Shown here one piece after another: positions 2,830-24,010 of a stretch of 32,000 bases of DNA. The notes beneath the pieces are model-generated. The model saw only the letters and a program-made list of their open reading frames with translations. It did no database searches and was not told where the DNA came from. How positions within the stretch are numbered: position 1 is the stretch's first letter; the number at the start of each line of letters is the position of its first letter. The position numbers and the translations under genes are program-made. Source of the stretch: Geobacter metallireducens GS-15 (GTDB taxonomy: Bacteria; Desulfobacterota; Desulfuromonadia; Geobacterales; Geobacteraceae); the NCBI RefSeq assembly GCF_000012925.1, contig NC_007517.1, positions 2,250,001 to 2,282,000 on the forward strand, in the 5' to 3' direction.

Positions 2830-3990
2830 TCAGCGATCCCCCGCGCGACGAATAAACTTTCGCGTCAACTCACCAGCCATATTCCAGACAGGGCTCACCA
2901 CACCAATCCGCTTAAGGGAAAAAGGGTCAGCCCCAGCGTCAACGGTTCCGAACACTACGGTTGCCACCGTATCGAAGCCTATTTTCTTGCAGTACGATCG
3001 CAAGTCCTCGGAAAAATCTTCTTTTCTCCCGTTGGGATACGCAAAATGTCGTACCTTACCGCCAAGTTGCACTTCCAGGACCTGCTTTGAATACCTGATA
3101 TCGTCCTGAGCCTCGTGAAGTGGAACACGGCTCAAAATAGGGTGCGTATGACTGTGGCTGCCGAAACTAATCTTGTTGGCAGACATCTCCTTAACTTCAT
3201 CCCAATTCAACATTGTTCTCTTGTTGGAGTTTTCGAGCGATGCCAGCGTAACGTCCAGTTCGCGAAAAATATTCACCAATCGTATTTTTCTTTCCGCATC
3301 GGGCATTCCCTTGAGAACCCTCGACAACTGGATACAGCAACTCCGCTTTTCCTCTATTGACTTGATCGGAGCACCGCAATCAGGCAGCAACCCAGGGAGT
3401 GACAGTGTCTGCTTTGTCGACGCGAGAAGCGCCGCTTCGATTTGGTCCGGCCATGTCCTGGCATTTGTTCCGATAAGCCCAGTTGCAAGGTAGATCATTG
3501 CAGGTACACCATGAGACTTGAGAACCGGGTACGCAAGGGTGTAGTTATCCAGGTACCCATCATCGAAAGTAATTGCGACGGAAGGTTTTGCAAAGTATTT
3601 CCCGCCCCGTATCGTGTCAACTACTTCATCCATGCTCAAGACCCGAAACCGCTTCTTCAGCCACGCTATCTCTCGCTCGAAATCCCTAATATGGTGATGA
3701 ACCACCGGCCCCTTATCCAGGTAAACGGTTTGATCATCAACAATGCGATGATAGAGGAGAATAATGCAAGGGTGCTCTTTTCGCAGCCATGACACCACCA
3801 CCAATGCCGCGTCGAACAGATGGAGATGATAGAGGATCAAATAGATGCCGCGTTTTACTGTTTTCTTGATTTTCATCACTGTTGATTCGGGTCTGCCTTT
3901 CTCGGCAATCAGTATTTTATCGGTTGTTGTCATAGAAAAGAGCGCGCCAACGCGCAATGTCTGCCAAATCATCCGGATCATCACGCTCAA
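2830..3990 (-). CDS. Polysaccharide deacetylase (NodB/CE4 family)
   Basis: NodB motifs are ITFDDGY, SHSHTHP and FAYPNG, preceded by an N-terminal hydrophobic segment. The codon at 3990 is TTG. ATG alternatives lie at 3981 and 3876, so the start is uncertain. Confidence 0.8.
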   Translation of the reverse strand: MSVMIRMIWQTLRVGALFSMTTTDKILIAEKGRPESTVMKIKKTVKRGIYLILYHLHLFDAALVVVSWLRKEHPCIILLYHRIVDDQTVYLDKGPVVHHHIRDFEREIAWLKKRFRVLSMDEVVDTIRGGKYFAKPSVAITFDDGYLDNYTLAYPVLKSHGVPAMIYLATGLIGTNARTWPDQIEAALLASTKQTLSLPGLLPDCGAPIKSIEEKRSCCIQLSRVLKGMPDAERKIRLVNIFRELDVTLASLENSNKRTMLNWDEVKEMSANKISFGSHSHTHPILSRVPLHEAQDDIRYSKQVLEVQLGGKVRHFAYPNGRKEDFSEDLRSYCKKIGFDTVATVVFGTVDAGADPFSLKRIGVVSPVWNMAGELTRKFIRRAGDR

Positions 3991-5484: not shown

Positions 5485-6651
5485 TCACAAGCACTGACTG
5501 AATTCCGCGAGCATTATTCCCAGACTCTCCCTAGAAAGATCCTGGTGAACAGGAAAACCAAATACATTTGTTTTCAGATAAACAGCATCAGGGTATTTAT
5601 CCCACGGGACTGCCGGATGAAAATCCCCCCACCAATCATGTCCGGACAATCCCTGATCTTTAAGTTGACGGTAAACTCTGTCCCTATCCTGGACGATCAC
5701 CGGGAAAAACAATGGGCTAACACCTTCGGGAAGAGAAAGTATCGGCAACGTTATGCGATCATTCATTATCAACTTGTCGAGCAGGTGGAGAAAGTTCGCT
5801 CTGCGGCGCTCCTTGATTCGTTGAAATTCAGTTCCACGAAGTATTGCGGATGAAACGTCCGACATCATCCAATGCTTCACCTGCTCATTGAAATGATTAC
5901 CGCTTGGATAAACCAGATAATCTCCATGGTCCTGAAAAATTTTGTGAATTCCCCTAAGCCCCATTCGAGCCAGGCGTGCAAAGGCGAAATTGCACGAATA
6001 GGCCATCTGATTCACACGTTTTGGTTCAGTAGTTGATCCCCGCGCAAGCATTTCCGAAACAACGAAGTAGGTGGCGAATAGATTTGGGCGAACCCTTCGA
6101 GGCCGATTGACAGAGAAGGCCGGGTTATTGATCAACAGACAGCCGCCATCGGGAATGGGAACGGTCTTTCGAATGCTGAAGATTGCCATGTCACCCGTTA
6201 AGCCGAGAGGAACGTCGCCATCGTTACTAAGCAACGCATGGGCGCAGTCTTCGATAAGAACAATCCCCCGCTCGGTGCATATCCGGTGAATGTTCTCCAG
6301 GCGCTGAGGAAACCCGAGGTAGTGGATGACAAAGATCGCTGCCGTCTCCGGCCGGATGCGAGCCAAAAGATCATCTTCATCTATTGAAAAATCGGTCTTG
6401 ACCCTATACCAGTCAATCTTCGCGCCCGAACGCACAGCCGGTTCAACTTCAACCCAGCAGTTGTAGGAGGGCATGAGAATCGACTGCTGAGGAGAAAGCT
6501 TCAGAGCATCGAGTGCTGCCGCAAGGGCATACCGAGCAGAGTAAAAATACTCACATCTGCCGGTATTAAAGGGAAACACCTCCTGCCGGGGACGATCGGC
6601 TCGGGAGGTCAGAATTTCCCATGTCAGTGATGGCTTGCTGCTAACCTTCAT
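5485..6651 (-). CDS. DegT/DnrJ/EryC1/StrS-family PLP-dependent aminotransferase
   Basis: The core EDCAHALLSNDGDVPLGLTGDMAIFSIRKTVPIPDGG matches the family pattern (AHA...GD..FSxxxxK..xxGG, with Lys as the PLP site). The track start at 6678 is a TTG. The ATG at 6651 is preceded by GAGGAAGAAGG and is preferred. Confidence 0.8.
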   Translation of the reverse strand: MKVSSKPSLTWEILTSRADRPRQEVFPFNTGRCEYFYSARYALAAALDALKLSPQQSILMPSYNCWVEVEPAVRSGAKIDWYRVKTDFSIDEDDLLARIRPETAAIFVIHYLGFPQRLENIHRICTERGIVLIEDCAHALLSNDGDVPLGLTGDMAIFSIRKTVPIPDGGCLLINNPAFSVNRPRRVRPNLFATYFVVSEMLARGSTTEPKRVNQMAYSCNFAFARLARMGLRGIHKIFQDHGDYLVYPSGNHFNEQVKHWMMSDVSSAILRGTEFQRIKERRRANFLHLLDKLIMNDRITLPILSLPEGVSPLFFPVIVQDRDRVYRQLKDQGLSGHDWWGDFHPAVPWDKYPDAVYLKTNVFGFPVHQDLSRESLGIMLAEFSQCL

Positions 6652-7750
6652 GCCCTTCTTCCTCAAGCCGTTTGCCAAATCGTTTCACAATCGGGTTGAC
6701 TTTTGTGTAGGCAAAATGGGCCAAAACGCCCTTGATGGTTTTGTTAAACAGATAAAAATTGGTGTAATTCCCCTTAATTTCTGCCCAATCAGACTTGTAG
6801 GTTTCGTTGCCGGGACCAAAATCCACCATTTTGACCTGTTCGCTATCCATCAAATACTGCAATACATGATTAAGGAGAACCAGTCCCACGCTGTACCGCT
6901 TATAACGTGAGTCATAGGCAGTCTTCAGAAAAAAACATTTGTCTCCGCACAAAATGCGATACTGCGCCGCTATGGGTTGTCCATCAAGATACATCAAGGC
7001 CAGCAGCAAGTTGTTGCCACGCGCTGCAATCTCTCCAAGATCGACATGAAAACCGGGCCCCAGGTGCTCGGCCTGTTTCCAGCTTTTCTCATAAACGTCG
7101 CTGTAATCCGCCATATACGCGGCAGCTTCATGGCCTTTAACTATCTTAATTTCTATAGAGCCCAGTTCCCCGAGCTTTTTATTCCTTCGTTTAATCTCCT
7201 GCCGCACACCCTTGTCCCTGCATTTCAGATACCCTTCATAGGCCAAACCTTCACAGGGGAGTCGCCAGTTGCAGTCAACAGCTTTATGGAGCCAATTGCA
7301 TCCCGAATAATGCAGCAGATCCATAGCCTGGGAATACAGTTCCCCATCGTAAAGCGGACCAATCTGGGCGATATCCCAGCCGGGTACCTTTCTTAACGCC
7401 TGGAATAGAAACTCACCAAGCCTTTGCTTGCTCTCTGATCTGTCAATTATCAAAGATCTCAGGGGCGAATAGGCATTGCCTATGCTCTCCAGTTTCCTTA
7501 CCGGTATTCTCTTGATTCTCTCTACTTTGCCGAGGAAAGGCGCAATGGCGACCAGTCTGTCACCTTTATAAACGGTTACAATGCACAGTCTGCTACCTTT
7601 GAGGAAATAGTTCAGCCACAGGCCATACCACCCATGACTCAAGAAAAAATATTCGTCGTGGTACTGTGAAGCCAGCGCATCCCATTCTTGTTGGATCCTG
7701 CTGAATCCGCTTAAATTGTCGATGATAACTACAGAATATTCTGCTGACAC
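6641..7750 (-). CDS. CelD/FemAB-like GNAT-fold acyltransferase (PEP-CTERM-locus FemAB-related type), paralogue 1
   Basis: 369 aa and colinear with the next gene. Shared blocks include LVAIAPF/LVAVAPF, SIGNAYSPLR/SIGGNRSPLK, VYEKSWKQAE/VRAKSWKAAE, DGQPIAAQ/DGTPIAVQ and YKSDW/YKEEW. The GTG start at 7750 has an AGGA RBS. Confidence 0.65.
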   Translation of the reverse strand: MSAEYSVVIIDNLSGFSRIQQEWDALASQYHDEYFFLSHGWYGLWLNYFLKGSRLCIVTVYKGDRLVAIAPFLGKVERIKRIPVRKLESIGNAYSPLRSLIIDRSESKQRLGEFLFQALRKVPGWDIAQIGPLYDGELYSQAMDLLHYSGCNWLHKAVDCNWRLPCEGLAYEGYLKCRDKGVRQEIKRRNKKLGELGSIEIKIVKGHEAAAYMADYSDVYEKSWKQAEHLGPGFHVDLGEIAARGNNLLLALMYLDGQPIAAQYRILCGDKCFFLKTAYDSRYKRYSVGLVLLNHVLQYLMDSEQVKMVDFGPGNETYKSDWAEIKGNYTNFYLFNKTIKGVLAHFAYTKVNPIVKRFGKRLEEEGHEG

Positions 7751-7757
7751 GTCAGTC

Positions 7758-8870
7758 CTATTTATGAGCGTTTGTGGAATCGGTATTTTTCTTCACCAGT
7801 GGCAGAATCTTCTTCATAAGAATAGAGGCTGTGCATCCAAGCACTGATTTATTGTAAGCTTCTATGCCGATTCTGTTTCTGAGCGACGGGGTCCATTCTT
7901 CCTTGTACGGTTCATCCCCCCTCAGGTAATCCACATACGCGACCCGCTCGTTGTCGATTGCATGCTGAAACATCATAGAGGTCAGAATCTTGCCAGGGCT
8001 GTGCTTCTTGTACTCCTCATCATAGAGAACGTCATAAATATAGGCTCTGCCATTCGCAACGATCCACTTCTGGACAGCAATAGGAGTCCCGTCATAGGAA
8101 AGAATCCCAAGCCTGAGCCACCCCTTGCCCGCTGCTACATGCATGAGTTCACGGTTGAATTCCCGATCCTTCTCGGCAGCTTTCCAACTCTTTGCCCGAA
8201 CGGCGTCGTACACATCGAGGCACTGATCAAGCGAAGCAGCGTCCGTTATGATCTGAAAAACAAGGGAGCCGTTCTTTTCCAGACGGCGACGGCAGTAATT
8301 GATATCCTTGCGGGTGCTCTGGGGCAGCCTCTCGAAGAAGCCGTCAAAGGAGGCATCCGCCACATCGCAGTAGCGGTTGGCGCAACTGATGTAGGAGCGG
8401 AACGAGAGCCCCTGGCGCTCAATGAGAGTCTCAATGCTGTTGCCATCATTGGATCCGGCTACCGGTTCAAGCTCAAGAATATCCCAGTTTTTGAAGGTCG
8501 TGCGGAGGTACTCCAACACCAATGTGGTAACCTCTCGCTGCATATTTTCGTCTGCGTCCCCGAATACGATCCCTTTCAGGGGCGATCGGTTGCCGCCGAT
8601 GGACGAGAGAATGCGGGCCGGGACAACCCCTTTGTAACGCTCAGAGCGGACCGTGAACGGAGCCACCGCCACCAGACTGCCGCCACTCCTCACCATGAGG
8701 ATATGAAGCGCACGTGTCTCACCGTGGCGGAGGCAAAGATCGAACCACTCCCAGCAGAACCAGGGGGTGTAATAGCCGTTGATATCGGCAAGCTGATTCC
8801 ACTCGTCTAGGATTGCCTGAAAAGCCTCCCGATCAGTTATGACGGCTATGTCAAAACAACCACGGTTCAT
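7758..8870 (-). CDS. CelD/FemAB-like GNAT-fold acyltransferase, paralogue 2
   Basis: 370 aa, with the same blocks listed for paralogue 1. Its start overlaps the upstream stop as ATGA (8867-8870), and a GGGGAG RBS is present. Confidence 0.65.
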   Translation of the reverse strand: MNRGCFDIAVITDREAFQAILDEWNQLADINGYYTPWFCWEWFDLCLRHGETRALHILMVRSGGSLVAVAPFTVRSERYKGVVPARILSSIGGNRSPLKGIVFGDADENMQREVTTLVLEYLRTTFKNWDILELEPVAGSNDGNSIETLIERQGLSFRSYISCANRYCDVADASFDGFFERLPQSTRKDINYCRRRLEKNGSLVFQIITDAASLDQCLDVYDAVRAKSWKAAEKDREFNRELMHVAAGKGWLRLGILSYDGTPIAVQKWIVANGRAYIYDVLYDEEYKKHSPGKILTSMMFQHAIDNERVAYVDYLRGDEPYKEEWTPSLRNRIGIEAYNKSVLGCTASILMKKILPLVKKNTDSTNAHK

Positions 8871-10126
8871 CGACTCCCCATTTCCCCCATCAATCGGCAG
8901 GGACGCACGTCCTTCCCCTCAACCAAAAGCTCGCACGGCTCCCCATGCCCCAAAAAGAGCAGCGGACTCGCACTGTACCCATAGCTCCCCGAATTCAGGA
9001 ACCCGACCAGATCCCCCACCTCCGGCACCTCCACCGTCACCCCCTTCCCCATCAGATCAAGGGGGGTGCAGAGGGGACCGACAAGGGTGCAGATTATCCG
9101 TTCCGCACCGGGCCGCGAAAGGTTGCGGACCAAGTAGTTCTTCCTAATGGTCATGCCGAGATTGCCCGATGCCGACAGGTGGTGGTTCATCCCCCCGTCG
9201 AGAACATAGAACTGCTCGCCCCGCGACAGCTTTTCACTCACCACCCGAGTTACGTAGATTCCGGCCTCGGCAACCAGGAACCGTCCCAGCTCCAGGAGGA
9301 TGCGGGGTTTTGTCCCCGTGGCCTCGCGGTACCGGTCGAACTCGGCCCTGAAAAGGAGGGCCAGCTTGTCCAGATCGAGCCCCGGATGCTCTTCGTAGTA
9401 GGAGACCCCGAGCCCACCGCCGATGTTGATGACCCGGCACTCCATGCCGTAGTCGGTGGTAATCCGGGCCGCTATGGCCAGGGTGTTGGCGAGATTCTGT
9501 GCCAGGGCTTCCTCGTTCAGGCACTGGGTGCCGGCGTAGATGTGGATTCCCTTGAAGTCAAACGCATCGGCATTGGCCTTGATGAAGTCCAGGGCCGATG
9601 GCAGTTCTTCCTCGTCGATACCGAACTGGGAAGCCTTACCACCCATCTTCACCGCGAAGTCCCTAATGAGGAGCTGGGGGTTGACCCGCACCAAAATGTA
9701 AGCCCGATGCGAACCGGCCCGAACCAGATCGCGCAGGTCATTAAGCTCGCGCAGCGATTCGACGCTGATGCAGCCAACCCCGGCCTCCAGGGAGCGGCGC
9801 AGCTCGTCGCGGGTTTTGCCCGGACCGGCGAAGCTGATGCACCCCGCGTCATAGCCGGTCTCCAGGGCGCGCTCCAGCTCGCCGGCCGAGGCAATGTCGA
9901 GGCCGTCCACTTCGCCCCGCATGGCTGCCAGGAGTTCCCGGTTCGGGTTGGCCTTGACGGCGTAGAGGAGTTCGAGGCTGTCGCCGAAGGCCTTGCGGAC
10001 GGCAGCGCACTTCTCCTTCACCTTGTCCAGGTCGTAGAGGTAGAAGGGGGTGCCATAGCGCGCGGCAAGCTCCTCGAAGCAGATATTCCGCAGGCAGGTT
10101 TTGCCGTTTTGTTCCGTCAGGATCAT
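8867..10126 (-). CDS. PLP-dependent decarboxylase, Orn/DAP/Arg decarboxylase family 2 (exosortase A system-associated type)
   Basis: Motifs are the PLP-lysine motif YAVKANPN, GGGLGV, GPLCTPLD and SGSYGYS, in a DAP-decarboxylase-like layout. The track start at 10150 is a GTG. The ATG at 10126 overlaps the ligase stop (TGATG) behind AGGGAAG and is preferred. Confidence 0.85.
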   Translation of the reverse strand: MILTEQNGKTCLRNICFEELAARYGTPFYLYDLDKVKEKCAAVRKAFGDSLELLYAVKANPNRELLAAMRGEVDGLDIASAGELERALETGYDAGCISFAGPGKTRDELRRSLEAGVGCISVESLRELNDLRDLVRAGSHRAYILVRVNPQLLIRDFAVKMGGKASQFGIDEEELPSALDFIKANADAFDFKGIHIYAGTQCLNEEALAQNLANTLAIAARITTDYGMECRVINIGGGLGVSYYEEHPGLDLDKLALLFRAEFDRYREATGTKPRILLELGRFLVAEAGIYVTRVVSEKLSRGEQFYVLDGGMNHHLSASGNLGMTIRKNYLVRNLSRPGAERIICTLVGPLCTPLDLMGKGVTVEVPEVGDLVGFLNSGSYGYSASPLLFLGHGEPCELLVEGKDVRPCRLMGEMGSR

Positions 10127-11697
10127 CAATTCTTCCCTGCCGCCAGCCACTCTTTCTTGATCCCCGAGCGGTCAATCTTGCCGTTGGCGGTTTTCCTGAA
10201 CGCCTTCTCGAAGTGAATCTCCTGGGGGACCATGTAGGTGGGGAGCCGCTTGCGGCACTCCTTGAGCAGCTCCTTCTTGTGTTCCTCCTCGTGGTCAGTC
10301 TCCATGACCGCCACGATGATCTGGTCGCCCGACTCCACTTCCTTGCCGAAGACAACCACGTTGCTCACGCCAGGCAAGCCGATGAGCACCTCTTCAACCT
10401 CGGTGGGGCTCACCCGGTAGCCGGAGGTCTTGATCATCTCGTCGCGGCGGGAGACGTAGTAGAGGAAGCCGTCCTCGTCCTTCTTCACGATGTCGCCGGA
10501 GTAGACCACGGTCTCGTGCAGGTGGGGCTGATCGTGGAAACGGGGATTCTTCCGGAAGATCACCTTGGTCTTTTCCGGGTCGTTCCAGTAGCCGTGGGTG
10601 ATGAGGGCGCCACGGTGGACCAGCTCCCCCTCTTCGCCCGGGGCACACTCTTCGCCCTTGGCGTTCACCACCAGGATCTCCACGTTGGGAATCCCCTTGC
10701 CAATGGAGTCGGGCCGGCGGTCAAGCTCCTCGGGGGGAAGGAAGGTGGAGCGGAATGCTTCGGTGAGCCCGTACATGAGGAAGAGCCGGGAGTTGGAGAA
10801 AAACTCGCGGATGCGGGAGACCATGATCCGGGGCACCTTGCCGCCGCTGTTGGTGAGGTAGCGCAGGTGGGGGAAGTCGGAGTTGTAGGTGAGCTTGATC
10901 TTGTCGTTGAAGAGCTTGGCCCAGATAGGGGGCATGCCGGCAAAGCCGGTGATCTCTTCCTTGACGAGGAGGTCCAGGAGATCCTTGACCATGACGAACT
11001 GGTGCAGCACCAGGGTCGCGCCGTGGAGGACGGCGGTGGTGGCCTGGTTGAGGCCGTAGTCGAAGTTGAAGGGAAGGACGCTGATAATCCGGTCCTTCTC
11101 GGTGATCTCCAGGTAGGTGCTGACGATCTCGGCCCCGTCCACCACGGTGCTGTGGGGCACCACCACCCCCTTGGGCATGCCGGTGGAACCGGAGGTGTAG
11201 ATGAGGCAGGCGATGTCCGGGGAGAAGCCGGGAACGGGGGTGTAATCAGCCGGGAGCGTTGCCTTGAGCTTGGGCCAGCAGGGGTGCCCTTCCCGGTCGT
11301 GCTCCGGCTCGTCCACATGGATGAGCTTTCCGGGCGCGGCCAGGTGGTTCTTGCGGAACAGCTCGCTGGTGGTGATCATGAGCTGGATCTGGCAATCGTT
11401 GACGATGTATTCGATCTGCTCTTTCTTGAGGATGGGGTTGATGAAGACAAAGACCGCCCCGGCCAGGGTGGCGCCGAACATGGCGGTGAGCTGCTCGATG
11501 GACTTGTCGAGGTAGATGCCGACCCGCTCGCCCCGCTTGATGCCGAGCCCGCGGATAAGCCCCTTCATCTTGAGCGCTTCCTCGTGCAGTTGGGCATAGG
11601 TGATGGTCCGGTCGTGGTGCTTGACAGCAACCTTATCGGGCAACCGCGCGGCGGTGTCTTCCAGCAGATGGCCTAGCAGATACGGTCTCAGACTCAT
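10126..11697 (-). CDS. AMP-forming acyl-CoA/acyl-ACP ligase (adenylate-forming superfamily, exosortase A-associated type)
   Basis: Motifs are the AMP-binding signature IYTSGSTGMPKGV, YGLTE, SGDIVKKDEDGFLYYVSRRDEMIKTSGYRVSPTEVE and the C-terminal KTANGKIDR. The start overlaps the ACP stop as ATGA. Confidence 0.9.
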   Translation of the reverse strand: MSLRPYLLGHLLEDTAARLPDKVAVKHHDRTITYAQLHEEALKMKGLIRGLGIKRGERVGIYLDKSIEQLTAMFGATLAGAVFVFINPILKKEQIEYIVNDCQIQLMITTSELFRKNHLAAPGKLIHVDEPEHDREGHPCWPKLKATLPADYTPVPGFSPDIACLIYTSGSTGMPKGVVVPHSTVVDGAEIVSTYLEITEKDRIISVLPFNFDYGLNQATTAVLHGATLVLHQFVMVKDLLDLLVKEEITGFAGMPPIWAKLFNDKIKLTYNSDFPHLRYLTNSGGKVPRIMVSRIREFFSNSRLFLMYGLTEAFRSTFLPPEELDRRPDSIGKGIPNVEILVVNAKGEECAPGEEGELVHRGALITHGYWNDPEKTKVIFRKNPRFHDQPHLHETVVYSGDIVKKDEDGFLYYVSRRDEMIKTSGYRVSPTEVEEVLIGLPGVSNVVVFGKEVESGDQIIVAVMETDHEEEHKKELLKECRKRLPTYMVPQEIHFEKAFRKTANGKIDRSGIKKEWLAAGKN

Positions 11698-11930
11698 GCT
11701 TCCCCCCTCTTGGATGTGATCAGGCTCGAAATGGCCGTTACGGTGCCAAGCTTTTCGACGGTCATGTCATCAACGTCGAATTCGACGTCAAAGGTCTGCT
11801 GAATGAAGGTGATGAGCTCCATGACCCCCATGGAGTCGATGATCCCCTGTTCGATGAGGGGGGTGCCCGGAGTCACGTCGGCATCGAGGGTGTCTTTGAA
11901 ATAGGTGATGAGTTGGGTTTCGATGGTCAT
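11694..11930 (-). CDS. Acyl carrier protein
   Basis: 78 aa and acidic. GIIDSMGVMELI contains the DSx phosphopantetheine-attachment serine. It sits immediately upstream of, and is coupled to, the ligase gene. Confidence 0.85.
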   Translation of the reverse strand: MTIETQLITYFKDTLDADVTPGTPLIEQGIIDSMGVMELITFIQQTFDVEFDVDDMTVEKLGTVTAISSLITSKRGEA

Positions 11931-11972
11931 GCTCAGTACCTCTGGTTTTGGAATGACTACTTTTGTCTATCA

Positions 11973-12069
11973 ACCCTCTCCCCCAGGGAGAGGGTGCCCG
12001 AAGGGCGGGTGAGGGAAACTCTGGCCACCGTGCCCCCTCACCCCTACCCCTCTCCCTCAGGGAGAGGGG
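11973..12069. repeat. REP-like compound palindromic element (three hairpins)
   Basis: Hairpin 1 is ACCCTCTCCC-CCA-GGGAGAGGGT (11973-11995). Hairpin 2 is GGGTGAGGG...CCCTCACCC (12007-12043). Hairpin 3 is CCCCTCTCCC-TCA-GGGAGAGGGG (12047-12069). The element fills the only sizeable gap (146 nt) in the gene train. No T-run follows on either strand. Confidence 0.7.
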
Positions 12070-12076
12070 AAACTTT

Positions 12077-13060
12077 CTAAAACATATCAAAATCACCGCA
12101 ATGGACCACCCACCCTTTATCGGGCAGGTTGTCCGTGAATGCGTGGGTAAGAAAATCGATATCCCACCGCTTGAGAAACACCATCTTCCGCAGAAGTGGC
12201 TCATACCAGGCGTCGGGCGTGGCATAGATCACGAGCCGCTGAATCCCCTGCTCGCTGGCCAACCGCGCGAGGTGCGATATGGCCTTGCGGAAAAGTTCCG
12301 GGTCGTCCCCCTCCACAATGATGTCGAGGATCTTCCGCTCGCTGCCGGTATCGTACGTGACGCAGTAGCCGCAAACCCGGTCGCCTGCCATGATCTGATA
12401 GCCGGTGGTCTGGTAGTGGAGGTTACCGAGGAACTTCCAGTTGAGGAACGCGGCGGTCTTATGGAAGTAGGCGTGCTTCGACGCGCGGCGATACCGTTCG
12501 AGCACCGGGTCGAGCTGCTCGGGGGAGAAACGGGACACCAGGTTAAGACTCAGGTCGGCATGGCGTCTGCCGGGTTTGACAAAAGAAAGCACGCTTTCGG
12601 CATTGAGCCCCGAGGCATTGGTGATCTTCTTGTACACCCCCACCTTGGCGGTGATCTTCCAGTTGAAGTACTTCAGGTAATACTTCTTGGACTCCTCGTT
12701 GGCATAGGCAAAGAGGAGATCGACTTTTTGCTCAAGCTCATCGGTGGTGAGACGGCAGAGCTTGCCGAACACTCCGTGAAAGAGCCGGTAATCGGGGTCC
12801 ACCAGGGTATTGACCCCCATGGCACTGCGGTAGAGGGTACCTGCACATGCCACATCCTGGGGGATGTAGTTCTCCTGCCCCACGAGGCGTTCGCCGTCGT
12901 AGCAGAGCCCCAGGTACGACTCTCCTGCAGGGTTGCCTGCATAGAAGGAGTCGAAGAAGCGCTCGTTGCGGTGGCCGTTGATCCGCTCCCAGAAGGAGTG
13001 GATGTTCTGGCGGTGATCCGCGTAATTGGTCGTGAAGGTATAGTCAAGCGTACGTTTCAT
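12077..13060 (-). CDS. Hypothetical protein, probably a two-lobed GNAT-fold acyltransferase
   Basis: 327 aa with no TM segments. The call rests only on general resemblance to GNAT/FemX-like proteins and on context next to ACP and ligase. The start overlaps the upstream stop as ATGA (13057-13060). Confidence 0.45.
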   Translation of the reverse strand: MKRTLDYTFTTNYADHRQNIHSFWERINGHRNERFFDSFYAGNPAGESYLGLCYDGERLVGQENYIPQDVACAGTLYRSAMGVNTLVDPDYRLFHGVFGKLCRLTTDELEQKVDLLFAYANEESKKYYLKYFNWKITAKVGVYKKITNASGLNAESVLSFVKPGRRHADLSLNLVSRFSPEQLDPVLERYRRASKHAYFHKTAAFLNWKFLGNLHYQTTGYQIMAGDRVCGYCVTYDTGSERKILDIIVEGDDPELFRKAISHLARLASEQGIQRLVIYATPDAWYEPLLRKMVFLKRWDIDFLTHAFTDNLPDKGWVVHCGDFDMF

Positions 13061-13884
13061 GGATTGCTGATATTCCCTGTTCCGGAATCGTCGATGCGGT
13101 AGCAGAACCGGTAGAGCTTGCGGTAAGTGCCGTACCCCACCAGGCTCTTGACGAAGTTCTTGGCCTTCTTGTTGATGATCATGGGGAGGAGCACCGACCG
13201 GTCTCCCGCCACGATCCGGCCGAAGGTGGCGAGGTCATAGGACCCCGAAACGTTGATCCTCCCCAGCACTGCCGGGGTTCCCCCCCTGTGCCGGATCACC
13301 GGCTCTGAGGTGCTTACGGAGCGGTAGCCGGCCTGAGCGGCCATCTCTATGACGCGGCGGTCGAAGACCCCCTGGGGCATGCTGATGTGGTTCACGGCAC
13401 GGCCGATCCGGTCCTCAATGGCCTTTTTCGAATCCTCCAGCTCGGCCCGGATCTCCCCGTCGGTGAGAAGCCCCAGGGGGCGGTGACTGACCGTATGGGA
13501 CTGGATCGAAATGCCGGCATCGGCCAACTCCCGAACCTGCTCCCACGTCATGTAGCCGGGTTGCCCCATGAAGCAGGAAACCACGAAGATGGTGGCGGTG
13601 AGCCCCAGTCCTGTGAGAATGGGCCAGGCAGCGCTGTGGTTGTTGTCCCACCCGTCGTCGAAGGTGATGACGACCCCGTTCCGCTCGCCGTTTCCAGTCA
13701 GGAGATCATCCAGGGAGAGGGACCGAAAACCGCCGGCAGTCAGTTGCTCCATCTGACTGCGGAACGCATCGGCCGTCACGCAGTAGGCTGGGTTGGTCTT
13801 TCGCACCGCCTTGTCCTGCTCGCTGGTGGCGGTTACCTCATGGTACATGAGGACCGGGGCTGTCATTGCCGGAATCGTGTCCAT
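13057..13884 (-). CDS. Polysaccharide deacetylase (NodB/CE4; PEP-CTERM-locus subfamily type)
   Basis: Motifs are PVLMYHEV, ITFDDGWDNN, QSHTVSHRPL and HISMPQG. Confidence 0.85.
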   Translation of the reverse strand: MDTIPAMTAPVLMYHEVTATSEQDKAVRKTNPAYCVTADAFRSQMEQLTAGGFRSLSLDDLLTGNGERNGVVITFDDGWDNNHSAAWPILTGLGLTATIFVVSCFMGQPGYMTWEQVRELADAGISIQSHTVSHRPLGLLTDGEIRAELEDSKKAIEDRIGRAVNHISMPQGVFDRRVIEMAAQAGYRSVSTSEPVIRHRGGTPAVLGRINVSGSYDLATFGRIVAGDRSVLLPMIINKKAKNFVKSLVGYGTYRKLYRFCYRIDDSGTGNISNP

Positions 13885-13891
13885 CGTCGCC

Positions 13892-15862
13892 CTACCCCAG
13901 ATACTCGTTCAGGCTCGGCGGCGTGACGCCGAGGGGATCGTTGGCCAGGTAGCAGTGATGCCAGATGTCGAAGGTGAGCAGGAACAGGATCCGGTTCGCC
14001 TTCGAGTTGAGGAAGTTGGGCCAGCCGACCGCCCCCTGCTGGAACGACTCGTATTTCTCGAACAGGGTACGGAGATAATCGGTGCGGAAATACTCTCCCA
14101 TGACTTCGGACCGGAGCAGCTTCTCGTAGATCCGTTTCCTCAGGGCCGGGTCGTTGAGGAAGATCATGACCGGCACGAATCCCCCCTGCTTGGGCTTGGA
14201 CATGATTTCCGGGGGGAGGATCCCCTCCATGGCCTTGCGGTGCAGGAGCTTGCTCTTGAATCTCCCCCGGAGGTGGTCCACAAGCCCCCCGCCCCGTTTG
14301 ACGGGCATGGGGAGAGACACCAGGAAGTCGGCCACATCGGCGTCCAGGAACGACTCACGGAGCACCAGGCCAAGCATGTCGGCCATGCGGCCGGACTTGA
14401 CCATGACATTCTCGTTGACGTAGTGCCGCATGTCCTGCTCGATCTGGGTTTCCAGGTAAACCTGGGCAAAGGATTCCGGGCTGCCCGCGGGCTCGCCGAA
14501 GATACGCGGCACCCGGGCCAGGTTGCCGTTTCTGTAAAGTTGGCTCAGTTCGTGGCCGTCGTAACCGTAGAAGTACCAGTCGTTCAGATCTGCTGCCCGA
14601 TTCCAGAAGAGCCGCAACTGGAAGCCGAGGTTGTCGCGATCATAGAACAGGGGACCCCGGAGCAAGCTTGAGACGGTGCGGGCCGGACCGATCATGCCGC
14701 TCTTGCGGAACAGGTAGTGGACGGCAGCAGGTCGGCCGCCGGCGAAACCGCCGGTGCCGTACATCTGGTCGGCCCCTTCGCCGCCGATGACCGCCTGGAC
14801 GTGGCCGCTGGCCGATTTGAGCCCCATGTAGGTGAGGAAGAGGCCGAACTCGAAATAGGGCTCTTCCAGGTGCCACACCAGGGAAGGGAGATCGTCGATC
14901 TCGCGACCGGTGATGGTGTACTCATGGTGATCGGTGCCGAAGTGCTTTGCCACGATCCGGGCGAAGGGGCGCTCGTCGAAACGGGGGTCTTCAAAGCCGA
15001 TGGCGAAGGTCTTGACCGGCGTACTGGAGCAGGAGGCAGCCAGGGCCGCGTTGGCGCTGGAATCGAGCCCGCCGCTCAACATGACGCCGGTGCTGCCGTC
15101 GCTCCCCATGCGCCTGGCGATTGCACCGCGCAGTAGATCACGGTAGGCGGGAATCGCTTCTTCCATGGTCATGCCTGGGCGGGTCACGGCATCAAACTGC
15201 CAGTAGGGGGCAACCTCCGCTTTGCCATCACGGAAAGTGAGCATGTGCCCCGGCGGCAGCTTGTTGATCCCTTTGAGGATCGACCAGGGAGAGGTGATGT
15301 AGGCGTATTTCAGGAACAGGTTGAGGCCTTCGTGGTCCAGTTCCCGCCTTACCCCCGGACAGGCCAGGAGGGTTTTGAGATGGGTGGCGAAGATAAGCCG
15401 TCCGTCGGCCACGGTCCAGTAGAGCTGGTGGGCGAGGCCGAAGCGGTCGTTCATGAGGCGGAAGGTCTTTTCCCGTTCGTCGAGGATGCCGATGGTGAAG
15501 AGGCCGTTGATGGAGCGGGCGAAGGAGGCGCCGCTGCGCCGGTACATGCGCAGGACGAGGTCAAGGTCGCCGCAGCAGGGACGCCCCGAGGGTGGATGCT
15601 GCGAGAGGAGCTCCCGGTAGTTGTTGACCTCGCCGTGGATAACCGCCGCAAGACCGGCGTCGGGATCGTGCTCTATGCGGGTCTGGCGGCTCGGGGAGTC
15701 GGCGGCGCTCCGCCGCATGCCGATGAGATGGCCGAGCCCCGTGGAGACGGAGAACTCACCACTGCCACTCATCTTCAGGTAGGCCGCCATGGCATTACCC
15801 AGCACATCCCTGTCGGCAATGGCGTTCCTGAAATCGATTATCCCGAAAATTCCCTGGCTCAT
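13892..15862 (-). CDS. Asparagine synthase-family amidotransferase (exosortase A-associated type) lacking the N-terminal Cys nucleophile
   Basis: 656 aa. The PP-loop is VMLSGGLDSSANAA. The N-terminal domain is Ntn-glutaminase-like, but the protein begins MSQGIFGIIDF rather than MCG. An AAGGA RBS lies 9 nt upstream of the ATG at 15862. Confidence 0.85.
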   Translation of the reverse strand: MSQGIFGIIDFRNAIADRDVLGNAMAAYLKMSGSGEFSVSTGLGHLIGMRRSAADSPSRQTRIEHDPDAGLAAVIHGEVNNYRELLSQHPPSGRPCCGDLDLVLRMYRRSGASFARSINGLFTIGILDEREKTFRLMNDRFGLAHQLYWTVADGRLIFATHLKTLLACPGVRRELDHEGLNLFLKYAYITSPWSILKGINKLPPGHMLTFRDGKAEVAPYWQFDAVTRPGMTMEEAIPAYRDLLRGAIARRMGSDGSTGVMLSGGLDSSANAALAASCSSTPVKTFAIGFEDPRFDERPFARIVAKHFGTDHHEYTITGREIDDLPSLVWHLEEPYFEFGLFLTYMGLKSASGHVQAVIGGEGADQMYGTGGFAGGRPAAVHYLFRKSGMIGPARTVSSLLRGPLFYDRDNLGFQLRLFWNRAADLNDWYFYGYDGHELSQLYRNGNLARVPRIFGEPAGSPESFAQVYLETQIEQDMRHYVNENVMVKSGRMADMLGLVLRESFLDADVADFLVSLPMPVKRGGGLVDHLRGRFKSKLLHRKAMEGILPPEIMSKPKQGGFVPVMIFLNDPALRKRIYEKLLRSEVMGEYFRTDYLRTLFEKYESFQQGAVGWPNFLNSKANRILFLLTFDIWHHCYLANDPLGVTPPSLNEYLG

Positions 15863-15887
15863 TGGTGATGATCCTTCATGGCCGCGC

Positions 15888-16700
15888 TCAGATCAGCCTC
15901 TTGCCGTTCTGTTTGAATTCCCGCACGTGGTCTTTGGTCGGAAAGGAAAAATAGGACCCCTCGGACGCAGGATTCTCGCGGTACGTGGCGGTGCCGTCCC
16001 GCAGCGAGGCGATGGCCCGGGCCATGACGTGGGCGCCCAGGATCTTGGTCCGCCGGATGAGGGAGTCGAGGGTCTCGCCGGGGAGGATATCGACCATCTC
16101 CTGGCGGAGGATACGCCCGTCGTCAAGCTTCTCGTTCATCTCGTGGATCGTGATCCCCACCTGCCGCTCGTTGTGGTACATCTGCCAGAAATTGGGGAGC
16201 ATGCCCCGGTAGCGGGGAAGCGCGCCGTTATGGATGTTGATGCAGCCAAGCCGAGGCAGTTCCACCAGTTCCTTCTTGAAGATGACCGGGGCGGCAACGG
16301 AGGCGATGAGGTCCAGGTCCATCTCCCGGAGCGACGCGAGGAATTCAGGGGAGTTGACCCGGTTGGTACTGAAGACCGGCATTCCATGGTGGGCACAGAG
16401 TTGGCCAACGCTGTAGAAGTTCCCCCCGGCCAGGGCCGGTATCCTGGCCTTCACCTTGTAAGACGCATAGCGGGTGCCGACCCGAACGAAATCCAGGGGG
16501 CCGTAGAAGTCGTACATCTGCCGGGCCAGCTGCACAGGGCCCTTCTTCCCCATGGCAGCGGCGATTACGACCCCCTTGATGGACGCAAGATCGTTGAAAG
16601 ACTTGAAAAACTCCTCGAAGAAGAGCCTGACGTAGAAAGGGTCGTCCTGGGTGATGAACAGGACGTTCAGTTTTTTGCTTTTCGTGTCGCTCATGGGCAT
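15888..16700 (-). CDS. Formyltransferase-family protein (Fmt/ArnA N-domain-like)
   Basis: 270 aa. CINIHNGALPRYRGMLPNFWQ matches the formyl_trans_N HxSLLPxxRG-type motif, with DDGRIL downstream. There is no tRNA-binding C-terminal domain. Confidence 0.8.
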   Translation of the reverse strand: MPMSDTKSKKLNVLFITQDDPFYVRLFFEEFFKSFNDLASIKGVVIAAAMGKKGPVQLARQMYDFYGPLDFVRVGTRYASYKVKARIPALAGGNFYSVGQLCAHHGMPVFSTNRVNSPEFLASLREMDLDLIASVAAPVIFKKELVELPRLGCINIHNGALPRYRGMLPNFWQMYHNERQVGITIHEMNEKLDDGRILRQEMVDILPGETLDSLIRRTKILGAHVMARAIASLRDGTATYRENPASEGSYFSFPTKDHVREFKQNGKRLI

Positions 16701-16710
16701 CGTTATTCCG

Positions 16711-17868
16711 TCAGTTGGTCATCCAGTTCCAGAAGCCCTTTTTGGGAGGATCGGGAAGCTGTTTGCCGCCTTTATCAACCATCTTGATGAGTTTGAAGAG
16801 CTCTTCCATGTCGAGGCGCATCTCGCTGATGTTTGCATCGGTGCTGTCTATCCGCGACTGAAGGGCCAGCACGGTACCGTTGAGAATCTTCTCGAGCATC
16901 ATGATCTGCTCCGAAAGGTTCGCAAGTTCCGAAGAAGCAACGCCGCCATCACCGACGGTGGCCTCCAGCCGAGTTACTTTTGCGGACATCTCTTCGAGGG
17001 CTTTGCCGTTGGCGGCGGTCATCCGGGGTTTCTCGTCGACGCTCTCATCGCCCCAGAACTTGCTCTCCGATTCGATCTCGCCGATGACCTCCTTCACGAG
17101 ATCGGTGCAGATGACCTTCTTCTCTTCGACAAAGGCCGACAGGAGCAGGAAATCGCAGATGATGTTGATGAGCCGCGGCACTCCCCGGCTGAAGAGATAG
17201 ATGAGATCAATGGCACCCTCGCCGAATTCCACTGCCGTCCGGTTGCCCGCCTTTTCCAGGCGGTGGAAGATGTATTCCTCCACCTCCGCCTTGGAGAGAT
17301 GATCGATGTGGCAGCTGATGCAGATGCGCTGACGCAGCTGCCGGAGCCTGTCGTTTGCAAGGGTGCGCCGCAGTTCGGGCTGTCCCACGAGGATGATCTG
17401 GACCAGCTTGGACTTGTCGGTCTCCAGGTTCGAAAGAAGGCGCACTTCTTCGAGAAGGTCGATATCGAGATTCTGGGCCTCGTCGATGAGGATCACCGGC
17501 TGGCGGCCCGCCACGAATTCATCCACCAGGAATTCGTTGAGCTGGCGCAGGAGGGCGATCTTGTCCTTGCCGGCCACGTCGAGGCCGAAATCGTCGTTGA
17601 TCATGGCCAGGAGCTGTTCCGACGTGACCTTGGTGTTGAAGATCTTCGAAAGGGTCACCTGCTCGTCGAGGCTCTTGAGGATGTTGCGAATGATCGTGGT
17701 CTTCCCCGAGCCGATCTCGCCGGTGATCAGCAGAAAGCCGTTGCGCTCCCTGATGCCGTACTCAAGGTACGTAATGGCCTTCTTGTGGACCCGGCTGAGA
17801 TAGAGGAACTCGGGATCGGGAACCAGCTCAAAGGGCTTTGTGGTGAAACCGAAAAATTCTTCGTACAT
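16711..17868 (-). CDS. ExeA/GspA-like AAA ATPase (PEP-CTERM-locus secretion ATPase type)
   Basis: Walker A is GEIGSGKTT and Walker B is ILIDEAQNL. The N-terminus MYEEFFGFTTKPF is typical of ExeA-like proteins. The ATG at 17868 lies 11 nt after the upstream stop and is preferred over the track start at 17961, which would overlap by 80 nt. Confidence 0.85.
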   Translation of the reverse strand: MYEEFFGFTTKPFELVPDPEFLYLSRVHKKAITYLEYGIRERNGFLLITGEIGSGKTTIIRNILKSLDEQVTLSKIFNTKVTSEQLLAMINDDFGLDVAGKDKIALLRQLNEFLVDEFVAGRQPVILIDEAQNLDIDLLEEVRLLSNLETDKSKLVQIILVGQPELRRTLANDRLRQLRQRICISCHIDHLSKAEVEEYIFHRLEKAGNRTAVEFGEGAIDLIYLFSRGVPRLINIICDFLLLSAFVEEKKVICTDLVKEVIGEIESESKFWGDESVDEKPRMTAANGKALEEMSAKVTRLEATVGDGGVASSELANLSEQIMMLEKILNGTVLALQSRIDSTDANISEMRLDMEELFKLIKMVDKGGKQLPDPPKKGFWNWMTN

Positions 17869-17879
17869 GGTGAGCGCTT

Positions 17880-19316
17880 TCAGTAGGTTAGTTTGGCCTG
17901 CAACCAGACGATGTTGTTGAAGTAATCGTGCGCCTCCACGTTGGAGTCGTTGAAGTTCCACGTGTAGCCAAGGCCCATCGTCATGATTCTGAAGGTATAG
18001 TCAAGGCCCGCCTGGGCACTGTAGCGGTTGGTCTTCTCGGTGATGGGTGTCACGTTGTCGGGGGAAAACTTGTAGTGCGTGTAGTTGCCGAGGAGGTTTG
18101 CCGCCAGATTCGCTCCCAGGGGAATCCGGGCGGTCATGGTCGCTCCGGTGGAGGTATCCTCGCGATTTACAGTCTCATAGCTGCTCTTTGTGTGGAAACC
18201 ACCCAGGGTGGTCTCGATTGTATGGTTATATTTTATCGAACCACCGTACGTATCCCTCTTATACGCACCTTGATTCACCGAATCGGTAAAATCACGGGAA
18301 TAGTGCGCCTCCAGGGAAAGGCGGTCGGAGAGGAGGTAGTTCGCCTGGGCGTTCCAGATGAGGGAATCGGTGTCAGGAAGGCGGTATTCTTGAGACACCG
18401 GCGGGCCCTCGGCAACCGTGGTGGCACCAATGAAATACTGAGTACGCCCCGTCAGTGTTCCCGACTTGTATCGATAGTAAACCTTGCCGACAGAGCCATT
18501 CAAGGTCAGTTTCGGTGTGATCTGGAGCATTGCTCCAATCGTCCCGGTATGTGTATCATAGCCGTTCCAGCCGGTTTCTTGTAAAGACTCACCCGAGGGT
18601 ATCGAACTTGTTATTATGTATGTATCACCAACTCTTATAGCACCTGTCACAGTGCGGAATTGCGTAATAGAAATATTAATATTCTCCTTCGGCAGATGGG
18701 TGCGGAAGTCATATTCCCCATAAATCGACAATCTCTCTCCGAAGGACTTGGTGAGCCTCCCCGTAACGGTGTGGTCTTGGGCGCTCTGACCTTGCGGGTC
18801 ATCGTACCAGGTATTCTTGTAGGTATACCCCGCAGTGAGACTGATACTGCTGGTTATGGGGTAGACAAGGTACGGATTCGCGATGAAGATGTTGGAGTCG
18901 GTAGTGTTGACGAAATCATTGCCCACCCCCACCTGCCGGCGGTCGTCGATGGGTACCCGGGCGTACACGTCGCTCATCTTGAGGAACAGGATGTCCCGTA
19001 TGGGGTTGAAGGTCGAATCGAGGCGTATCCGCTGGGTCCTGGCCAGGGATGTATCGTCCTTTTCCGAGTGCTTCGCGAAGAGCTTGAAGTAAAGCCCGTA
19101 ATCCAGGTTCAGCTTCAAGAGATTGGTATCGATCAGCGCATTGAGCGACGGTACGATAGTCGTGATGAAGTCGTCGCGACGGTTTTCGTTCGTCAGATCA
19201 ATGTTGTCGTTGTACTCCTCGCGGATAATCAGGCTCGGCGTCAACTTGAACTCCGCGTGGGCAGTGGCTGCCACGCAACATGACATAAGCATTCCACCCA
19301 TGACCACTTTTCTCAT
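17880..19316 (-). CDS. Outer-membrane beta-barrel protein (PEP-CTERM-locus associated)
   Basis: The signal peptide is MRKVVMGGMLMSCCVAATAHA/EF. The body shows an alternating aromatic/polar strand pattern rich in Y, T, N and G. The C-terminus is ...WLQAKLTY, ending in an aromatic residue. The start overlaps the kinase stop as ATGA. Confidence 0.75.
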   Translation of the reverse strand: MRKVVMGGMLMSCCVAATAHAEFKLTPSLIIREEYNDNIDLTNENRRDDFITTIVPSLNALIDTNLLKLNLDYGLYFKLFAKHSEKDDTSLARTQRIRLDSTFNPIRDILFLKMSDVYARVPIDDRRQVGVGNDFVNTTDSNIFIANPYLVYPITSSISLTAGYTYKNTWYDDPQGQSAQDHTVTGRLTKSFGERLSIYGEYDFRTHLPKENINISITQFRTVTGAIRVGDTYIITSSIPSGESLQETGWNGYDTHTGTIGAMLQITPKLTLNGSVGKVYYRYKSGTLTGRTQYFIGATTVAEGPPVSQEYRLPDTDSLIWNAQANYLLSDRLSLEAHYSRDFTDSVNQGAYKRDTYGGSIKYNHTIETTLGGFHTKSSYETVNREDTSTGATMTARIPLGANLAANLLGNYTHYKFSPDNVTPITEKTNRYSAQAGLDYTFRIMTMGLGYTWNFNDSNVEAHDYFNNIVWLQAKLTY

Positions 19317-20164: not shown

Positions 20165-20199
20165 AGGTACTATGTTCCTTTCTCTGCGTCGTTGCGGTA

Positions 20200-21756: not shown

Positions 21757-21771
21757 TAGTTGATCTCCAGG

Positions 21772-22620: not shown

Positions 22621-22629
22621 TTCCCCCCC

Positions 22630-23994: not shown

Positions 23995-24010
23995 AGCTTC
24001 TTGTCCTCTT

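Follow-up and report, generated by a model that had tools for sequence, protein, structure and literature searches.

The gene cassette

The subject of this analysis is a cassette of eight genes in Geobacter metallireducens GS-15, whose core consists of an adenylate-forming ligase, a small carrier protein and a decarboxylase dependent on pyridoxal phosphate (PLP). It lies in a stretch of 32,000 nucleotides (contig NC_007517.1, positions 2,250,001 to 2,282,000; C1:2250001-2282000 of a genome of 4,011,182 bp in two contigs), which we call the window and in which all positions are given unless stated otherwise. The window is one long array of minus-strand genes and represents an exopolysaccharide (EPS) locus of the XrtA/PEP-CTERM type. 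A first-pass annotation had placed eight open reading frames at 5485-13884; all of them are present on the minus strand, and the gene families named there were borne out by profile matches for every gene.

In the direction of transcription, the first gene (13057-13884) codes for a CE4/NodB-type deacetylase of 275 aa (PF01522, 95 bits) and overlaps by 4 nt the second gene (12077-13060), which codes for a tandem-GNAT acyltransferase of 327 aa with an Eis-like fold (PF13527, 28 bits, cut-off 25). After an intergenic gap of 146 nt (11931-12076), in which inspection of the sequence revealed a palindromic repeat similar to repetitive extragenic palindromes, comes the gene of a stand-alone carrier protein of 78 aa (11694-11930; PF00550, attachment serine in GIIDSMG), annotated before as an acyl carrier protein (ACP). 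The next two genes code for the VinN-like adenylate-forming ligase of 523 aa (10126-11697), which scored 796.8 bits on TIGR03098 (curated cut-off 592), and for the BtrK-like decarboxylase of the alanine-racemase fold (8867-10126), which scored 579.7 bits on TIGR03099 (curated cut-off 478). Since both are over the cut-off, the description of ligase, ACP and decarboxylase as a set associated with exosortase A was right. The last three genes code for two FemX-like proteins, namely a tandem-GNAT protein that we call Fem1 (7758-8870, 370 aa; PF13480, 138 bits) and a second protein of 369 aa (6641-7750; PF13480, 100 bits) that is 27% identical to it, and for a divergent putative aminotransferase of the DegT/DnrJ/EryC1 family (5485-6678) with a PF01041 match of 84 bits covering residues 47-187 only, that is, the N-terminal half.

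Regarding the gene boundaries, the decarboxylase has 419 aa and not 427 as annotated, with its start at ATG 10126, where it overlaps the ligase stop as TGATG. The start of the DegT-like protein is probably ATG 6651. The eight genes had been described as coupled throughout, and actually six of the seven junctions overlap or are at most 11 nt apart; nevertheless, the coupling is broken between GNAT and ACP because of the 146-nt gap filled with the repeat. This repeat (11974-12070) also matches two intergenic sites, 5975-6074 and 3876-3920, of the related locus of G. hydrogenophilus (L009), and therefore it would be a mobile or dispersed element and not a conserved regulatory site of this junction. 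In related loci of Geobacteraceae the conserved block also takes in an upstream AsnB-like gene and a formyltransferase.

The ligase and the carrier protein

The ligase carries the A4 motif FNFDYG, whose Asp binds the amino group of the substrate, and the A10 motif GKIDR. Judging from its motifs, it is an enzyme of the adenylation type found in nonribosomal peptide synthetases (NRPSs), with a pocket that is not that of a fatty-acid ligase. Among its single-domain matches in the PDB, VinN (3wvn) was the second, with 193 bits. LgrA, which at 302 bits looked like a special relative, was rejected as such, its score being the sum over two adenylation domains (142 + 157 bits).

In VinN, the residues that recognise the amino group and the alpha-carboxylate of 3-methylaspartate are D230, F231, S299 and K330/R331 (PMC11253843; PMC7756342); D230 contacts the amino group, and K330/R331, in a beta13-beta14 loop that is shortened, contact the alpha-carboxylate. 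In an alignment anchored on motifs, D213, Y214, S284 and R316 of the Geobacter ligase lie on these positions or beside them; around positions 299 and 301, which adjoin a one-residue indel, the register is approximate. D213, in FNFDYG, is the equivalent of GrsA D235 and VinN D230; Y214 corresponds to the bulky residue at 236 (VinN F231) and S284 to the Ser at 301 (VinN S299), with the same approximate register. R316 belongs to the motif TEAFRS in the beta13-beta14 loop, its register to VinN R331 being approximate as well, and an Arg is kept there in 54 of the 55 family members.

The ten-position pocket code was DYNKTSMRSK for Geobacter, DYNKCTMRSK for the relatives linked to a mutase and DASQATMRSK for those linked to hydrolases (both groups are described below). 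The code is nearly constant over the whole ligase family, and Geobacter differs from the mutase-linked ligases only at 299 and 301. All 18 mutase-linked ligases have Cys299 (T282 in the window protein) and none of the 37 others does; Cys299 may be a marker for 3-methylaspartate versus aspartate specificity.

The best PDB sequence matches of the 78-aa carrier protein were peptidyl carrier proteins, PigG, PltL and DltC. To judge from these matches, it resembles peptidyl, prolyl and D-alanyl carriers more than a fatty-acid ACP.

The decarboxylase

The decarboxylase was searched against the sequences of solved structures, and the best match was BtrK (276 bits, E 5e-81), followed at a distance by the best diaminopimelate decarboxylase (161 bits) and by ornithine decarboxylases at about 50 bits (51 or less). 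On the lysA model it reached 266 bits, under the cut-off of 298. Thus, the enzyme is nearer to BtrK than to the decarboxylases of the same fold that act on free substrates, and it would belong to the carrier-dependent BtrK/VinO type. The glutamate that BtrK decarboxylates is tied to the carrier protein BtrI by a thioester at its gamma-carboxyl (PMC7857480). We propose, from this relationship in sequence, that the Geobacter enzyme likewise acts on a carrier-bound amino acid.

Related loci

We found more than 7,800 homologues of the decarboxylase at E <= 1e-40. For the comparison we sampled 80 loci that encode relatives of it in many phyla, and their contexts were defined by clustering the neighbouring open reading frames. 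The ligase stands beside the decarboxylase in 70 of the 80, and a carrier-protein gene was detected near the pair in 20-25 of those loci, in searches that are insensitive for so small a protein. Several contexts recurred:

i) Mutase-type loci, around 22 of the 80, in Acidobacteriota, Beta- and Gammaproteobacteria. The gene order is an unknown protein of 241 aa, ACP, ligase, methylaspartate mutase S, mutase E, GlmL and decarboxylase, with the B12 glutamate mutase separating ligase and decarboxylase. Mutase E scored 410 bits (cut-off 390) and mutase S 164 bits (cut-off 110), and in two of these genomes the mutase of the cassette is the sole copy. These loci reproduce the full vicenistatin logic (VinH/I-N-L-O) within polysaccharide loci. 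The 241-aa protein (family c4) showed no relation to the GNAT or Fem families by hhalign.

ii) Hydrolase-type loci of the Rhodocyclales type. They have the top TIGR03098 and TIGR03099 scores, and their partners are the alpha/beta hydrolases TIGR03100 and TIGR03101. The Geobacter pair resembles them in that both proteins are over the curated cut-offs, adjacent and in an XrtA-type locus; however, in Geobacter the hydrolases are replaced by the NodB deacetylase, the tandem GNAT, the two FemX-like proteins and the DegT-like protein.

iii) GNAT-type loci, where a GNAT of about 340 aa lies upstream of ACP, ligase and decarboxylase, in Acidobacteriota, Nitrospirota and others. The partner protein of family c24 in other loci was weakly GNAT-like (hhalign probability 78%).

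The decarboxylase tree (IQ-TREE quick search) and the ligase tree (FastTree) were mutually consistent. In both, the Geobacter proteins cluster with the mutase-linked ones in one major group (branch supports 93-99), and the proteins linked to hydrolases or to the c20 GNAT form separate groups.

Two other arrangements were observed. In L017, L029, L035, L073 and L078 (Acidobacteriota), and also in L024, L030, L032 and L038, two ligase-decarboxylase pairs stand side by side, one with glutamate mutase and the other often tied to a GNAT and a GT4 glycosyltransferase, which suggests two different beta-amino acids for one polymer. In L046, L053, L055, L062 and L080 (Archangium and other Myxococcota) the examined flanks of the decarboxylase homologue showed no ligase gene; loading may be done there by another enzyme, or the substrate may be free.

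Comparison with characterised pathways

The chemistry of the set had been called not established. This holds for its polysaccharide setting, as our literature search found no paper assigning the set a chemistry in an EPS locus, nor any linking ligase/carrier/decarboxylase chemistry to exosortase or EPS loci. It does not hold for the three-enzyme logic itself, for which there are biochemical or genetic tests in the pathways to vicenistatin, butirosin, fluvirucin, closthioamide and bolagladin (PMC11284099, PMC11350588, PMC7756342).

In the vicenistatin pathway of Streptomyces halstedii, whose starter unit is made by these enzymes, VinN activates 3-methylaspartate at its side-chain carboxyl and couples it to VinL, a free-standing carrier, on which VinO decarboxylates it (PMC11284099); the glutamate mutase VinH/VinI belongs to the same set. 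The Geobacter cassette is alike in its stand-alone adenylation enzyme, its carrier and a PLP decarboxylase predicted to act on a tethered amino acid; VinN ranks high among the matches of the ligase with solved structures, its substrate-binding residues are apparently kept, and relatives of the cassette include the mutase. Nevertheless, a mutase is missing from this genome, and the cassette has neither a counterpart of VinM, the second adenylation enzyme, nor a VinK-type transferase or a polyketide synthase (PKS), and therefore this is not a strict vicenistatin-type pathway. Furthermore, the context here is an exopolysaccharide operon of a Gram-negative anaerobe and not a polyketide cluster.

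Regarding butirosin (BtrI/BtrJ/BtrK/BtrH), BtrK is the closest solved relative of the decarboxylase, and the acceptor of BtrH is likewise the amine of an amino sugar, in that case an aminoglycoside. The differences are that the butirosin substrate is glutamate, that BtrJ is an ATP-grasp enzyme whereas the Geobacter ligase is adenylate-forming, and that BtrH is no GNAT whereas the candidate transferases of Geobacter have the GNAT fold.

The Btr, Flv and Cta systems are precedents for the ligase/carrier/decarboxylase set (PMC11350588), and so is the Bol system of bolagladin, where BolO is described as VinN-like with D230/S299/R331 conserved and BolN as BtrK-like (PMC7756342). In the pathways to bolagladin (Burkholderia gladioli, BolO/BolC/BolN), to fluvirucin (FlvN/L/O) and to closthioamide (CtaD/E/F), a free-standing carrier receives aspartate by the beta-carboxyl, and the product is decarboxylated to a beta-alanyl-carrier. 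They differ from the Geobacter case in their lipopeptide, macrolactam or polythioamide products.

Probable substrate and proposed order of the steps

We think that the core of the cassette is rather probably a carrier-protein pathway for a beta-amino (omega-amino) acid, most likely derived from aspartate, which is transferred to an amino sugar of the exopolysaccharide. In a first step the ligase would adenylate an acidic amino acid at its side-chain carboxyl and load it on the 78-aa carrier, the most likely amino acid being L-aspartate and a less likely one L-glutamate. In a second step the decarboxylase would remove the still free alpha-carboxyl on the carrier, giving beta-alanyl-S-carrier (or gamma-aminobutyryl-S-carrier).

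A PLP decarboxylase needs a free alpha-carboxyl beside the amine; if this one acts on a tethered substrate, the substrate has to be loaded by its side chain. That loading comes first and decarboxylation takes place on the carrier is suggested by three points: VinN rejects the decarboxylated acid, beta-alanine fails to rescue a bolN mutant, and the pocket of the Geobacter ligase appears to keep the residues for a second carboxylate.

Regarding the identity of the amino acid, the models of methylaspartate mutase (TIGR01503) and methylaspartase (TIGR01502) had no match in the complete Geobacter genome, whereas the control genomes G001 and G002 gave one hit each over the cut-off. 3-Methylaspartate is ruled out as substrate in a genome without either enzyme, and thus aspartate or glutamate remain. 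Judging from the sequences, the route from aspartate to beta-alanyl-carrier is the most likely one, because the ligase and the decarboxylase group with the type acting on a C4-dicarboxylate (3-methylaspartate), with a pocket that differs at two positions, and because VinN, FlvN and BolO, the side-chain loaders of the adenylation-domain type considered here, all take aspartate or 3-methylaspartate.

The same on-carrier chemistry could use L-glutamate, going from gamma-glutamyl-S-carrier to gamma-aminobutyryl-S-carrier as in butirosin. We consider this unlikely, although it deserves attention. The nearest solved decarboxylase, BtrK, does act on a glutamyl-carrier, and a genome without the mutase leaves any common acidic amino acid possible. 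However, the grouping of both enzymes with the mutase-linked ones, the pocket code and the substrates of these side-chain loaders, which favour aspartate, count against glutamate, and the ligase of the butirosin pathway, an ATP-grasp enzyme, is unrelated.

Proposed late steps

The first-pass annotation had proposed that GNAT or Fem-type enzymes make the final transfer, possibly to a sugar, and transfer to a sugar amine is kept here as the best guess. In a third step the Eis-like tandem GNAT would pass the aminoacyl group from the pantetheine thioester to a sugar amine of the repeat unit of the exopolysaccharide. The NodB-type deacetylase, encoded on the same transcript, would expose this amine, or the DegT-like aminotransferase would make it, or both. 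In a fourth step the FemX-like pair would probably take one or more further amino acids from aminoacyl-tRNA and add them to the new free amine or else to a different amino sugar.

The deacetylase has both metal motifs intact, TFDDG (Asp-Asp) and HTVSH (His-x-x-x-His), and its N-terminus shows no obvious signal peptide, so that it is probably cytoplasmic. Its gene also lies directly upstream of GNAT-ACP-ligase-decarboxylase in L061 and L056, which belong to other phyla. In Nod factor synthesis (NodB/NodA/NodF) and in lipid A synthesis (LpxC/LpxD) the amine of N-acetylglucosamine is deacetylated and then re-acylated from an acyl-carrier protein. Since the deacetylase has intact NodB-type motifs, lacks a signal sequence and is coupled to the GNAT, a scheme of this kind is suggested for Geobacter, and we propose that the deacetylase unmasks the sugar amine. 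The likeness consists of a probably cytoplasmic CE4 deacetylase coupled to an acyltransferase and a dedicated carrier. In the Nod and Lpx systems, however, the donors are fatty acyl groups and the transferase folds are unrelated, while the Geobacter donor is predicted to be aminoacyl.

PDB sequence searches gave nothing useful for the GNAT or for Fem1, and both were compared by fold. The AlphaFold2 model of the GNAT has a mean pLDDT of 93, and its best PDB folds by Foldseek were tandem GNATs of the Eis family (E about 5e-15, TMq 0.62-0.69), followed by N-myristoyltransferases. Both kinds of enzyme acylate amines from pantetheine thioesters. Eis has an SCP2-like third domain at its C-terminus, and the Geobacter GNAT lacks a third domain: it has 327 aa versus 383-409 in the Eis-family matches, and the model stops after the second GNAT.

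This protein is a remote full-length homologue of the GNAT found upstream of the ACP in other phyla (hhalign 97.4%, E 1.4e-11), a position that is kept in three phyla. Furthermore, of the 121 genomes sampled in the order, the 3 that have the GNAT are precisely the 3 that have the decarboxylase, and 8 of the 9 other genomes of the genus have neither. On the modelled fold, the GNAT is a candidate for the transferase that takes the acyl group from the carrier.

Fem1, with a model of pLDDT 90, matched the folds of FemX (E 6e-13, TM 0.56-0.65), FemA, Sbb17/Sba18 (streptothricin-type) and MprF, with a sequence identity of only 9-14% to the top ten matches. All the top matches use aminoacyl-tRNA. Among them, Sba18 has an amino-sugar amine as its acceptor, and its crystals contained streptothrisamine, which is an amino sugar. 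Fem1 is therefore a candidate aminoacyl-tRNA-dependent aminoacyl transferase, as far as a modelled fold can indicate, its donor being predicted from the fold. Neither Fem protein had a hit on TIGR03019, the model of the PEP-CTERM-associated FemAB (cut-off 260 bits), and there is none in the genome. Taken together, the models suggest a division of labour in which the Eis-like GNAT takes the beta-aminoacyl group from the carrier and the FemX-like pair adds ordinary amino acids from tRNA.

In the DegT-like protein, the Lys of the FS-x-x-K motif is invariant in its own family and two residues nearer to the Ser than in the solved DegT enzymes, and the PF01041 match is partial. Homologues lie a few genes away from ligase-decarboxylase pairs in L061, L075, L084 and L085 (Nitrospirales, Accumulibacter and two other lineages).

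A composite cassette

The cassette is composite. By blastn against the G. hydrogenophilus locus L009, homology at 89-93% DNA identity runs from the XrtA core through NodB, GNAT, ACP and ligase to most of the decarboxylase, and it stops at position 8928, around 60 nt before the stop of the decarboxylase, which we take as an approximate recombination breakpoint. We compared the two sides, 8928-19757 (homologous) and 5485-8927 (divergent). Protein identity to L009 was 89-98% upstream of the breakpoint and 32-37% downstream, with the same kinds of genes in the same order, and the GC content falls from about 0.60-0.63 to 0.45-0.55 past it.

From this pattern the Fem-Fem-DegT half looks like a divergent (allelic) replacement, and, because identity and GC drop past 8928, it would behave like the variable, serotype-like part of a polysaccharide locus. 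To judge from a breakpoint within the cassette, its late Fem/DegT half may be a specificity module that can be swapped. What is new here is a mutase-less version of the cassette that is combined with a deacetylase, with an Eis-like GNAT, with a pair of FemX-like proteins and with a DegT-like protein, and that has an internal breakpoint.

The exopolysaccharide locus

The XrtA core genes lie at 16711-26686, upstream of the cassette, and were identified with NCBIfam profiles. They code for PrsT, the priming glycosyltransferase TIGR03013, an export protein, a chain-length determinant, a tyrosine kinase, an outer-membrane protein and an ATPase, and every one scores over its cut-off. Downstream of the cassette there are glycosyltransferases, a flippase and more deacetylases, and the exosortase and its EpsI partner lie around 8 kb past the window start.

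There are three polysaccharide deacetylase genes in the locus (2830-3990, 13057-13884 and L089 9312-10154), one of them with DUF3473, an indication that amino sugars, N-substituted or free, are abundant in the polymer.

The exosortase of the locus (L089 7104-7982; genome C1:2241104-2241982) scored 180 bits on XrtA, whose cut-off is 208, and a second homologue elsewhere in the genome scored 198 bits. Neither of them reaches the cut-off, despite the XrtA-type genes that surround the first. A sigma-54 response regulator and a histidine kinase adjoin the locus (27374-29747), with 385 bits against the PrsR cut-off of 503 and 64 bits against the PrsK cut-off of 300, respectively, so that the regulatory pair of the locus may be non-canonical. 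Finally, two genes match TIGR03694, the PEP-CTERM/exosortase-associated acyltransferase family, which is related to N-acyl amino acid and acyl-homoserine lactone synthases. One is complete (30861-31673, plus strand) and the other (31732-31998, minus strand) is cut by the window end.

Other explanations and points against the proposal

Besides the glutamate version discussed above, a carrier-bound beta-amino acid might be made for something other than the polysaccharide, namely a lipid, a small secreted metabolite or the modification of a PEP-CTERM protein. The acceptor is deduced entirely from context, the characterised homologous cassettes all serve small molecules, and the TIGR03694 genes, which resemble synthases of N-acyl amino acids, lie in the same window. 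However, the cassette is part of one co-directional array, between the XrtA core export genes on one side and the glycosyltransferase, flippase and exosortase genes on the other; it is flanked by sugar-modifying enzymes (deacetylase, DegT, formyltransferase), and there are no PKS, NRPS or lipid-synthesis genes nearby. We therefore judge such a destination to be distinctly unlikely.

The scheme of the first-pass annotation was that a fatty or simple acid is activated on the ACP, that a separate amine is made from free diaminopimelate, ornithine, lysine or arginine, and that GNAT or Fem enzymes join the two. The NCBIfam name of the ligase, acyl-CoA ligase, and its 311 bits on long-chain-fatty-acid ligase models agree with the first part, and the lysA score of the decarboxylase, although under the cut-off, agrees with the second. 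Nevertheless, both parts conflict with what we found. An A4 motif of the NRPS type with its amino-binding Asp, and a VinN-like pocket with an invariant Arg and Ser, are not expected for the activation of a fatty or plain carboxylic acid, and the carrier is nearest to peptidyl and aminoacyl carriers. BtrK outscores by far every diaminopimelate or ornithine decarboxylase, and in relatives of the cassette glutamate mutase sits between ligase and decarboxylase. Furthermore, in the characterised systems the decarboxylated free acid is no substrate of the ligase or does not rescue the mutant. Hence this scheme now seems very improbable.

Finally, we give hardly any credit to the idea that the ligase loads a diamino-dicarboxylate like meso-diaminopimelate by one alpha-carboxyl, to be decarboxylated at the distal centre to lysyl-S-carrier or similar. 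The decarboxylase is in the diaminopimelate decarboxylase clade of its fold and the ligase is similar to adenylation domains for alpha-amino acids; however, there would be no need for such a route where lysine is freely available, the pocket residues are of the VinN type and the mutase linkage in relatives indicates C4/C5 acidic amino acids.

Returning to the proposal of an aspartate-derived beta-amino acid for an amino sugar of the exopolysaccharide, several points weigh against it. Regarding the substrate, the nearest solved structures do not separate aspartate from glutamate (the substrate of BtrK is a glutamyl-carrier, and no structure of VinO has been solved); R316 is aligned with VinN K330/R331 with an uncertainty of one residue; and the mutase-linked relatives are under the TIGR03098/TIGR03099 cut-offs (504 and 415 bits), being, by their 41-51% identity, a sister subfamily and not orthologues. 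Regarding the late steps, any of the three GNAT-fold proteins is a candidate for taking the carrier-bound group, and a sugar dehydratase or dehydrogenase that would feed the DegT enzyme is absent from the 48 kb examined. Regarding the literature, we found no biochemical or compositional study of this locus or of any XrtA-linked homologue, and no report of amide-linked beta-alanine or gamma-aminobutyrate in a Geobacter or XrtA-type polysaccharide.

Meaning of the cassette

A further idea concerns the exosortase itself. The free amine provided by the cassette (beta-alanyl, perhaps extended by the FemX-like proteins) could be the nucleophile to which the exosortase attaches the cleaved PEP-CTERM proteins. 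This is speculative and we rate it as quite improbable. If true, it would have a parallel in Staphylococcus, where Fem proteins build the pentaglycine bridge used by sortase A. It would also account for the presence of ligase, carrier, decarboxylase and FemAB-like genes together with XrtA systems in different phyla, and the acceptor of the exosortase, which has been sought for long, would be identified.

The TIGR03098/TIGR03099 pair is widespread and its members still bear generic names ('acyl-CoA ligase', 'pyridoxal-dependent decarboxylase') with the addition 'exosortase A system-associated'. Our proposal makes a precise prediction for it, that is, a mass shift on the carrier of +115 Da followed by one of -44 Da. 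In wastewater and soil bacteria, the formation of flocs and biofilms depends on XrtA-type loci, and, if the proposal is true, a class of aminoacylated, positively charged exopolysaccharides that has not been reported is predicted. In Geobacter, metal binding and the attachment to minerals and electrodes are affected by the charge of the matrix and by its amine content.

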